Assembly: GCF_006345805.1 (NCBI RefSeq)
Contig: NW_021834687.1
Coordinates: forward strand, 1-45,384
DNA length: 45,384 nucleotides
Source: Octopus sinensis
Lineage: Eukaryota
Direction of reading: 5' to 3'
Of this stretch, positions 40,522 to 42,640 are shown one piece after another. The number at the start of each line of letters is the position of its first letter. Position 1 is the stretch's first letter. Under the pieces are notes generated by a model. It did no database searches. It was not told where the DNA came from and was given only the letters and a program-made list of their open reading frames with translations. The position numbers were made by a program, and so were the translations under genes.

Positions 40522-40748
40522 GATATATTAAAATTACTAAATCGCTATAAAAGAGATTACGGCAGCGTTTACTGGAAATTAATTGTTATCGCCATATTAA
40601 TATGACATTCTTATAGATATAAGAATAATCGCTGCCGCTGGTCAGCTCCATGAGGCCACCGCCATCAAGATAGCTATTGATACACGATCTGTATCCATTA
40701 TAACCTTCGAACAAGGGAGGTCAGCCGCTTCACACTGCCAGTCCAACA

Positions 40749-40790
40749 GCTACAGACGCGTTTCGGGGTATTGCTCCTTGTCAATGTAGC
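40749..40790 (-). ncRNA. Type I hammerhead ribozyme motif, copy 1
   Basis: gctaca-TTGACAA-ggag(caata)cccc-GAAA-cgcg-TC-tgtagc; stem I extends through an internal loop (gtctgac/gttggac). Confidence 0.75.
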
Positions 40791-41112
40791 GCAGTCAGAC
40801 CCGCAGGTGTCGCCAATGACGTCTCTGTTCGAAGGTTTCTATTTACCTAGTTTCAGTGGAATACATCCACTTGTTTTCAATAATAGAAATATTAAAATTA
40901 CTAAGTCTCTATAAAAGAGACTACGGCAGCGTTTACAGGAAATTAATTGTTATCGCCATATTAATATGGCATTCTTATATATATAAGAATAATCGCTGCC
41001 GCTGGTCAGCTCCATGAGGCCACCGCCATCAAGATAGCTATTGATACACGATCTGTATCCATTATAACCTTCGAACAAGGGAGGTCAGCCGCTTCACACT
41101 GCCAGGCCGACA

Positions 41113-41154
41113 GCTACAGACGCGTTTCGGGGTATTGCCCCTTGTCAATGTAGC
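41113..41154 (-). ncRNA. Type I hammerhead ribozyme motif, copy 2
   Basis: gctaca-TTGACAA-gggg(caata)cccc-GAAA-cgcg-TC-tgtagc; perfect stems I and II, palindromic stem III ACGCGT, GUC site. Confidence 0.8.
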
Positions 41155-41157
41155 GTC

Positions 41158-41197
<40 letters not shown>

Positions 41198-41203
41198 ATA
41201 TAA

Positions 41204-41279
<76 letters not shown>

Positions 41280-41371
41280 GATATAGATATATATAAGCAC
41301 ACACACTCATACGCATATATATATATACATATATATGCGTGTGAGTGTGTGTGCTTATATATATCTATATC

Positions 41372-41410
<39 letters not shown>

Positions 41411-41565
41411 CTCTATCTATTTATCTATCTATCTATCTATCAATCTATCTATCTACACACACACACACACACATGTATATATATATATTTATATAGACAT
41501 ATTACAGGGAAACTAGTATAGATCTAATTAAATTAATGTCTAATTTCTAAACCCTCATTTTAAAT

Positions 41566-41718
<153 letters not shown>

Positions 41719-42221
41719 GTACACATACACACACGCACGCACACACGCACACACAGACCTATATATATATAGCCCCTCATAACGTTTTGTTTTCATTTTG
41801 GAGAATTTTTAGAGAATTTTGGCGAATTTATATTCTATACCCGGAAATTCATCCGATTAACCAAAAACGAAAGAAAATATATTTTGGTGCGGGATTTAAG
41901 GCCTGATTAGCTGTTATTTTTATCAACTTTAACCACCACCTCATATGTCATATGTTTTGAAGCGTTCAAGAATAATACGTTGAATACGTTGAGAAATACG
42001 ACAAAAAATTGAGTCAATGAATGAGGAAAGAATTGTAGACAGGGGTGTGGTTTCAAATAATTAAAGGAATGAAAAGGTCTTTCATAAGTTTAGAAGAAAT
42101 TGTCAAAATAGAGAAAGTGAAAGTGAAAGCAAGAGAAACATCCGTTTGGAGATTTAAGGTGAAATGAACAGACTAAGTCGCTTGAGACCTTTCTGAGAGA
42201 AATCAGAAAAGTCTTTCTTTT

Positions 42222-42640
42222 ACTCTTTTACTCTTTTACTTGTTTCACTCATTTGACTGCGGCCATGCTGGAGCACCGCCTTTACTCGAACAAATCGACC
42301 CCAGGACTTATGCTTTGTAAGCCTAGTACTTATTCCATCGACTCTCTTTTGCCGAACCGCTAAGTTACGGGGACGTAAACACACAAGCATCGGTCGTCAA
42401 GCTATGTTGGGAGGACAGAGACAGACACACAAACACACACACACACACACACACATGTATATATATACATATATACGACGGGCTTCTTTCAGTTTCCGTC
42501 AAACAAATCCACTCACATGGCTTTAGTCGGCCCGAGGCTAGAGCAGAAGACACTTACACAAGGTGTCACGCAGTGGGATTGAACCCGGAACAATGAGATT
42601 GGTAAGCAAGTTACTTACCACACAGCCACTCCTGCGCCTA
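42222..42640 (-). mobile_element. SINE family 1
   Basis: Reverse complement of 2253-2740. Confidence 0.85.

Follow-up and report, generated by a model that had tools for sequence, protein, structure and literature searches.

The window analysed here is a stretch of 45,384 nt of Octopus sinensis DNA (NCBI RefSeq assembly GCF_006345805.1, contig NW_021834687.1, positions 1 to 45,384 of the forward strand) that carries, between two (TA)n tracts, a minus-strand insertion of 1.75 tandem units (Table 1). The preliminary description of this DNA had placed a repeat with a 364-bp period at this site, and the period is confirmed by a direct repeat of 273 nt with 96% identity (40519-40791 and 40883-41155); the element amounts to 1.75 units and not to two full ones, with bounds at about 40519 and 41155. 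Both copies contain the hammerhead parts noted on the minus strand, namely a stem I (GCUACA/UGUAGC), the core UUGACAA, a stem II, the sequence GAA, the palindromic stem III ACGCGU and a GUC site, with U3-A8 in place of C3-G8 in the core. Stem II is GGGG/CCCC upstream; in the downstream copy it reads GGAG/CCCC, the mismatch already described being located at 40775. The predicted cleavage positions fall where they had been proposed, 364 nt apart. The three self-complementary segments pointed out within the monomer are perfect (12/12 and 8/8 pairs, and a 16/16 palindrome). A search against Rfam finds no hammerhead family at E≤1 in a scan of 39500-42500 and returns only microsatellite-driven miRNA matches; the source of these spurious matches is a 90-nt perfect-loop inverted repeat of microsatellite blocks (41236-41415, 97% complementary) just past the element. 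The loop-less U3-A8 variant may fall outside the Rfam hammerhead models, which could explain the missing match, and support for the motif is taken from copy number against controls and from covariation, instead of from Rfam or the folding of isolated hammerheads.

Table 1. Features of the insertion and its borders, in positions of the window.
Feature	Position	Strand	Remark
Whole insertion, 1.75 tandem units	40519..41155	-	637 nt; 3′ end is family end-site B and merges into (TA)n
Upstream minimal type I hammerhead	41113..41154	-	supported by sequence and by covariation in the family
Upstream hammerhead, stem I	41154-41149 with 41118-41113	-	
Upstream hammerhead, core UUGACAA	41148-41142	-	
Upstream hammerhead, stem II	41141-41138 with 41132-41129	-	
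Upstream hammerhead, palindromic stem III	41125-41120	-	predicted cut 41119/41118
Downstream hammerhead	40749..40790	-	anatomy like the upstream one; predicted cut 40755/40754
Cut-to-cut monomer, 364 nt	40755..41118	-	predicted to fold into a branched rod that has the hammerhead as one of its tips
End-site A, internal copy	40940..40942	-	monomer 177-179; fixed 3′ end of family insertions
End-site B, internal copy	40880..40883	-	monomer 236-239; second fixed 3′ end
Tail between end-sites A and B, terminal partial unit	40519..40577	-	about 62 nt in the family
(TA)n tract at the 3′ junction	40449..40518		inferred target
(TA)n tract adjoining the 5′ junction	41161..41188		

The insertion in the window is truncated at its 5′ end at monomer position 328 and forms a single arm with a B end, leaving an upstream ribozyme that is cut off just above stem I. 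The stem II mismatch of the downstream ribozyme is private to this locus and absent from most family copies, and in a predicted circular fold the pair probabilities of this stem do not exceed 0.2. With this mismatch, the upstream truncation and no promoter known, the locus need not be a source of RNA; it is a slightly decayed copy and may be silent. The one reading frame lying inside the element measures 77 aa from stop to stop, and the element is without protein-coding capacity. A target-site duplication (>4 bp, counted as a retrozyme trait when present) is indistinguishable here since the junctions sit inside a (TA)n microsatellite. Two insertions identical to that of the window are found with matching flanks on another contig, 150 kb apart (G000:C27:17309857-17310493 and 17459464-17460100), and are a recent segmental duplication or assembly redundancy.

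The insertion belongs to a large family in the 2.72-Gb genome. A DNA search produced 2,451 candidates, of which 40 were scored, giving 140 matches, while a 16-mer spanning the cut site has 2,057 exact matches and its control 1, and a degenerate hammerhead-core pattern matches 2,513 times against 5. The number of insertion sites is estimated at about 1,600, scaled from the 100 first listed matches, which represent 65 sites; the loci sampled are top matches together with first-listed matches on contig C1 and are not a random set. Complete cut-to-cut units (47 in 32 loci) measure 354-365 nt, within the 150-450 bp expected of tandem units with a type I hammerhead, and tandem arrays reach about ten units. 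The longest of those viewed, a ten-unit array at L217:1424-5020, has private variants that show a four-unit higher-order period. Clustering of 79 full units gives four subfamilies, 10-18% apart; a fifth, marked by an ACUAGU palindrome, was met by chance in locus L107 (40 pattern matches, 25 loci viewed). This variant was considered as one half of a heterodimeric unit, which was ruled out, as it represents an older subfamily with the same end sites. A hammerhead-like motif with a U3-A8 core and an AAUUUU stem III occurs twice per locus in the flanks of L030 and L249, possibly marking a further family. Among the sequencing runs listed, none recorded as RNA contains the repeat; contigs assembled from four other runs cover it in fragments too short to inform on strand, ends, level or circularity, and one contig joint in these runs goes back by 363, as expected from any tandem repeat. 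For runs under two further organism codes, the fraction of shared words is 0.35-0.50. The literature searched holds no description of an octopus or cephalopod retrozyme, although Repbase, Dfam and the supplements of retrozyme papers lay outside the search and may list the family.

Covariation was examined in 28 hand-picked hammerheads (27 distinct, one per locus, four motif classes) out of 117 loci. Across the 27 aligned sequences 93.4% of paired cells are complementary, compared with 86.0% in shuffles, none of 500 of which is as high, and with 26-44% in slid registers. Changes on both sides are seen in three of the six pairs of stem I, in two of the four pairs of stem II, where one subfamily has A-U at the base instead of the usual G-C, and in the centre of stem III, which swaps among the palindromes ACGCGU, ACAUGU and ACUAGU. 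The number of pairs with double changes (nine) is no higher than in shuffles (8.7; 291 of 500), and the covariation consists of few subfamily-level events only. The sequences have the layout of a minimal, dimer-type type I hammerhead (core N3 UGA N7 N8 A9 with a 3-8 pair, GAA, UH, stems I and II and a palindromic stem III): stems I-III are paired in 98-100% of cases and the 3-8 pair is U3-A8 in all 27 rows. Many loci were found by motif patterns, and the invariance of the core is in part built in. Judged from these pairings, the hammerhead fold is conserved across the subfamilies. PLE (Penelope-like element) hammerhead dimers are reportedly the subject of a study by Lunse et al., cited in PMC6765202. 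A palindromic stem III without a loop is unable to form inside a single ribozyme, so that two copies would be needed for cutting (PMC4209133, PMC7229834). The U3-A8 core is known from the Schistosoma PLE Cercyon, and minimal hammerheads of the PLE type cut poorly in vitro (PMC4209133); of nine Xenopus retrozyme dimers, eight did not cut (10.64898/2026.07.22.740005).

The monomer as a whole is highly self-paired, its predicted fold being more stable than all of 100 shuffles (z -6.85), and units of two other subfamilies among the three tested fold at z of about -7.2. The reverse complement folds well too (z -8.51), so the strand is not given by folding energy and its assignment depends on the ribozyme motif. 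Isolated hammerheads of about 60 nt fold no better than shuffles. In an alignment of 20 whole units, double changes occur in 6 of 93 consensus pairs.

The most informative feature of the family is one absent from the preliminary description, the Penelope-type anatomy of its insertions. A total of 161 loci were fetched, of which 99 are distinct, with 163 arms (L002, L003, L093 and L154 were removed as duplicates). The 3′ ends of 59 arms lie at monomer 173-179 (site A) and those of 82 at 235-240 (site B), about 62 nt away, leaving 22 elsewhere. Nearly all arms with an A or B end run into TA repeats (54/59 and 77/82, together 131/141), as do 7 of the 22 others, while the 5′ ends are scattered. 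Many insertions consist of two head-to-head arms, and when L222 and one repeated pair are also removed, 60 such pairs are counted: both ends could be classed in 47, giving 44 A+B, 3 B+B and no A+A, and 13 have an unclassed end. Among loci obtained from motif patterns or their match lists, all 22 classed pairs are A+B. Insertions of PLEs have been described as partial tandems, truncated at the 5′ end, in which one arm is inverted and one end carries a tail (10.1101/2021.04.23.441226). In vitro, this tail lies between two internal start sites for reverse transcriptase (RT), at which synthesis begins once AT-rich DNA has been nicked on both strands (PMC11167929). The octopus family matches this anatomy, with two internal 3′ ends bounding a tail, 5′ truncation, an inverted arm and an AT-rich target, and it is a dispersed multi-copy family with the signs of retrotransposition expected of a retrozyme. 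Site A lies in an AU-rich loop that is predicted to be single-stranded. The 5′ truncation points cluster at monomer 36-50 and 190-215 (19 and 18 of 160 ends in 20-nt bins), near two strong predicted stems, which suggests stalling of the RT or joining by microhomology. At L189:1143-1840 (G000:C1 near 14.279 Mb) both 3′ ends of a head-to-head pair are at about monomer 141, and the arms, in place of (TA)n, are joined to antisense sequence of a PLE ORF fragment, at an identical point in both; this locus is a retrozyme-PLE chimera or a later inverted duplication.

These observations make it highly probable that the repeat is a non-autonomous, PLE-mobilised family of the retrozyme type. Spread at the DNA level as a satellite or minisatellite, with the hammerhead as a dead relic, would agree with the periodic variants of long arrays, which point to some duplication of DNA, and with the broken stem II pair of the downstream copy in the window; it is very improbable given the fixed 3′ ends, scattered 5′ ends, TA targeting and A+B inverted pairs, which are marks of retrotransposition, and given compensatory changes between subfamilies 10-18% apart, which need selection on RNA structure. 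A more serious competitor, which we nonetheless regard as unlikely, takes the repeats to be the pLTR region, or tandem 3′ end, that belongs to an autonomous PLE, the loci being ordinary truncated tails and the full-length copies unsampled. The insertion anatomy is exactly PLE-like, the minimal U3-A8 hammerhead is of the PLE type (PMC4209133) and most PLE copies are truncated tails. However, arms measuring 2.1, 2.5 and 3.6 kb contain nothing but tandem units, and no upstream body is common to the 44 free 5′ flanks compared; five pairs of these share adjacent sequence, which we attribute to segmental or local duplication, to low complexity or to unit sequence left unaligned. No junction between a pLTR and an ORF is present among 123 loci, which are mostly represented by 1.5-kb flanks and make up less than a tenth of the roughly 1,600 estimated sites, a coverage at which a rare autonomous parent may have been missed. 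PLE protein matches occur in only 5 of the 123: three of these, on inspection, are independent insertions with TA tracts or unrelated DNA in between, a fourth is a chimera carrying a piece of ORF in antisense, and L005 was judged from coordinates only. Conversely, in 40 stretches around GIY-YIG matches (30 loci from 147 matches and 10 longer ones) the unit is found in one place (L047/L070), on the opposite strand. This L070 copy was considered as the pLTR of the adjacent PLE and ruled out, as it lies behind about 500 nt of TA repeats in addition to its orientation, and the copies at L151 and L134 were likewise ruled out as PLE pLTRs, being separate insertions. In the loci examined, the unit is not found with an RT and GIY-YIG ORF between pLTRs, as in an autonomous PLE, and is unattached to an autonomous ORF, as in a retrozyme. 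The retrozyme-type family proposed in the preliminary description stands on its thousands of copies, its tandem units, its stem covariation and the lack of a PLE frame attached as pLTR in the loci examined. That proposal was to be given up if the copies lacked stem covariation or were always attached to a Penelope RT ORF; stems I and II are kept by compensatory changes, and the 123 loci are free of such attachment.

The form in which the RNA serves as template is a separate matter. Among 160 5′ ends, only 2 are found no further than 2 nt from the cut, with 2.2 expected, and 153 of 156 cut junctions are of normal length, indicating that the RT did not usually copy cut linear monomers. An apparent pile-up of 5′ ends at position 1, which might have marked the ribozyme cut, was an artefact of the linear query and is gone with cyclic mapping. 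In polymorphic columns, opposite arms of a locus agree in 620 of 639 comparisons and neighbouring units in 876 of 899 (about 97%, against an expected 0.66); the divergence among units of one locus is about half that seen from locus to locus, and two opposite arms resemble each other as closely as adjacent units do. Common alleles are present in all copies of a locus 96 times, in all but one 7 times, in some 5 times and in a single copy 20 times. Since boundaries ignore the cut site and each insertion carries one haplotype, the template was likely an unbroken RNA, either a circle or an uncut multimer. The haplotype pattern is what rolling round one circular haplotype gives, and it also fits linear transcripts of young, uniform arrays. 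Mixed templates or recombinants do exist, as one arm at L107:1325-1935 has two hammerhead variants (ACAUGU and ACUAGU) 361 nt apart, and 6 of 88 loci are assigned to two subfamilies. The periodic variants of long arrays point to duplication at the DNA level.

We slightly favour a circle over an uncut linear multimer as the usual template. The competing account keeps the same family and PLE machinery and has RT copy an uncut linear read-through of a tandem source array, no circle being formed and the hammerhead being kept for another step, such as liberating a 5′ end or dimer-mediated folding. The disregard of 5′ ends for the cut site suits such a template, as do the mixed-variant arm of L107 and the periodic variants, and with an anole PLE in vitro ribozyme cutting is dispensable and uncut RNA is the main template (PMC11167929). 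It is nevertheless rather doubtful, because new alleles turn up in every unit and both arms of an insertion, which requires passage through one unit and re-expansion, and because 5′-truncated copies of a linear template cannot exceed the length of their source, yet multi-unit arms are found in several subfamilies. We regard the locus in the window, as the better-supported account, as a 5′-truncated copy of what is likely a PLE-mobilised non-LTR retrozyme with a predicted dimer-type hammerhead, copied into (TA)n by a Penelope-like RT/GIY-YIG protein, probably from a unit-length circular RNA.

A course of events that would produce such copies begins with transcription of tandem units on the hammerhead strand. 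By analogy with described retrozymes, the palindromic stems III of two adjacent hammerheads would base-pair, and cleavage behind GUC would release a monomer of about 362 nt, which a host ligase would close. A PLE protein may then nick both strands of a (TA)n tract, and its RT would be primed at the two AU-rich sites inside the unit, which lie 62 nt from each other, as a rule with one site for each strand; such ends are observed and the enzyme is presumed. Passing the cut site for less than one to several units and stopping at scattered points, a pattern seen in the genome that a circle would account for, RT would yield single or head-to-head arms of one haplotype, and a few arrays would later grow by duplication of DNA, as their periodic variants indicate. 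A bolder reading, offered tentatively, is that a protein-free RNA circle of viroid size is itself the replicating unit, with two priming loops for a Penelope RT dimer, one cDNA per nicked (TA)n strand (A and B) and rolling circles of a single haplotype, the subfamilies being RNA replicons with mutually exclusive dimerisation palindromes.

A candidate for the helper is present in the genome. The L063 family (L063:1674-5374, with relatives L061-L066 and L069) encodes a 781-aa ORF with RT and GIY-YIG, the RT scoring just under the Pfam cut-off, and a 479-aa upstream ORF of no Pfam family overlaps its start. At the 3′ end, the best 40 of 1,034 candidate copies show about 100% identity. The element gives way to (TA)n at its ends, a 37-nt tail is found in 2 of 30 loci, in one of them on an inverted arm opposite a tail-less end, and about 70 nt from the end there is a U3-A8 core with ACAUGU, whose stem I is poor or degenerate-looking. 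This young autonomous RT/GIY-YIG PLE with a U3-A8 core and a TA target is a candidate helper only, as the unit has no alignable homology to seven PLE end regions (the best score is equalled by 5 of 150 shuffles); an eighth region, from L067, is left out of this comparison, having been taken from the wrong strand. Further PLE families lie downstream of GIY-YIG matches at L043, L044, L045 and L049, with U3-A8 or A3-U8 and the palindromes AGCGCU or ACCGGU. Within the window, a reading-frame fragment directly after (TA)n at 35999-36406 (+) has a YIG motif and by eye resembles the GIY-YIG end of a PLE; it has no Pfam confirmation and a weak similarity to L063 (E 0.022).

Among known systems, the family is closest to the non-LTR retrozymes of animals (Cervera & de la Pena 2020, PMC7229834), with repeats of about 350-390 bp in the mussel Mytilus and 330/350 bp in axolotl. 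It shares with them tandem non-coding units of 150-450 bp that each bear a type I hammerhead, a self-paired monomer, a GC content below 50%, thousands of copies and the presence of PLEs alongside. It differs in its minimal U3-A8 hammerhead with a loop-less palindromic stem III, as retrozymes are credited there with canonical hammerheads, the minimal form being ascribed to PLEs, and in its copies being short dispersed (TA)n insertions with inverted arms and two fixed ends, which do not figure in the portion of its text available to us. Cleavage and circles have been demonstrated for those retrozymes, whereas the octopus family is known from its genome sequence. The plant LTR retrozyme, in which type III hammerheads lie in LTRs around an internal region, is a different arrangement, the octopus repeat having type I topology and a whole unit repeated head to tail. 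In giant squid, 235 Rfam hammerhead-1 loci have been reported as a count only, in the account available (PMC6962438).

With endonuclease-positive PLEs (Frangieh 2024, PMC11167929; Cervera 2014, PMC4209133; Craig 2021, 10.1101/2021.04.23.441226) the family has in common two internal start sites bounding a tail, 5′ truncation, partial tandems, an inverted 5′-truncated arm, an AT-rich or microsatellite target and a U3-A8 core. Unlike these elements it has no RT/GIY-YIG ORF, its tail is about 62 nt instead of 30-40, and the unit is the whole element. PLEs have been called a strong candidate for mobilising animal retrozymes (PMC7229834), and Li, Clavereau & Pollet 2026 (10.64898/2026.07.22.740005) conclude for the same partner, treating retrozymes as non-autonomous PLE derivatives, with the precise mechanism of mobilisation said to remain to be elucidated. 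Their criterion of two consecutive hammerhead-bearing units describes the locus in the window in outline. Their evidence is co-occurrence and pLTR homology in, as far as the available text goes, 31 vertebrates, 3 insects and 1 coral, with no mollusc, while that from the octopus is insertion anatomy without pLTR homology.

By its sequence, the family qualifies as a non-LTR retrozyme; it is not itself a PLE, but its integration resembles that of one. The class is already known; what is new is this member, with unusually clear genomic evidence of PLE mobilisation. The integration signature of a PLE is carried directly by the family, in countable numbers, which bears on the questions, left open in the literature consulted, of which enzyme moves animal retrozymes and whether it copies circles. 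Any account of how PLE proteins prime both DNA strands must also agree with the strictness with which inverted arms combine an A end with a B end. As the genome holds an intact young PLE with a matching target and the same unusual ribozyme core, the published PLE assay (PMC11167929) is applicable to the retrozyme RNA in linear and circular form. If the tentative reading of an RNA circle as replicating unit is true, the octopus family and its young, intact candidate helper would form the first retrozyme-helper pair that could be rebuilt in vitro.
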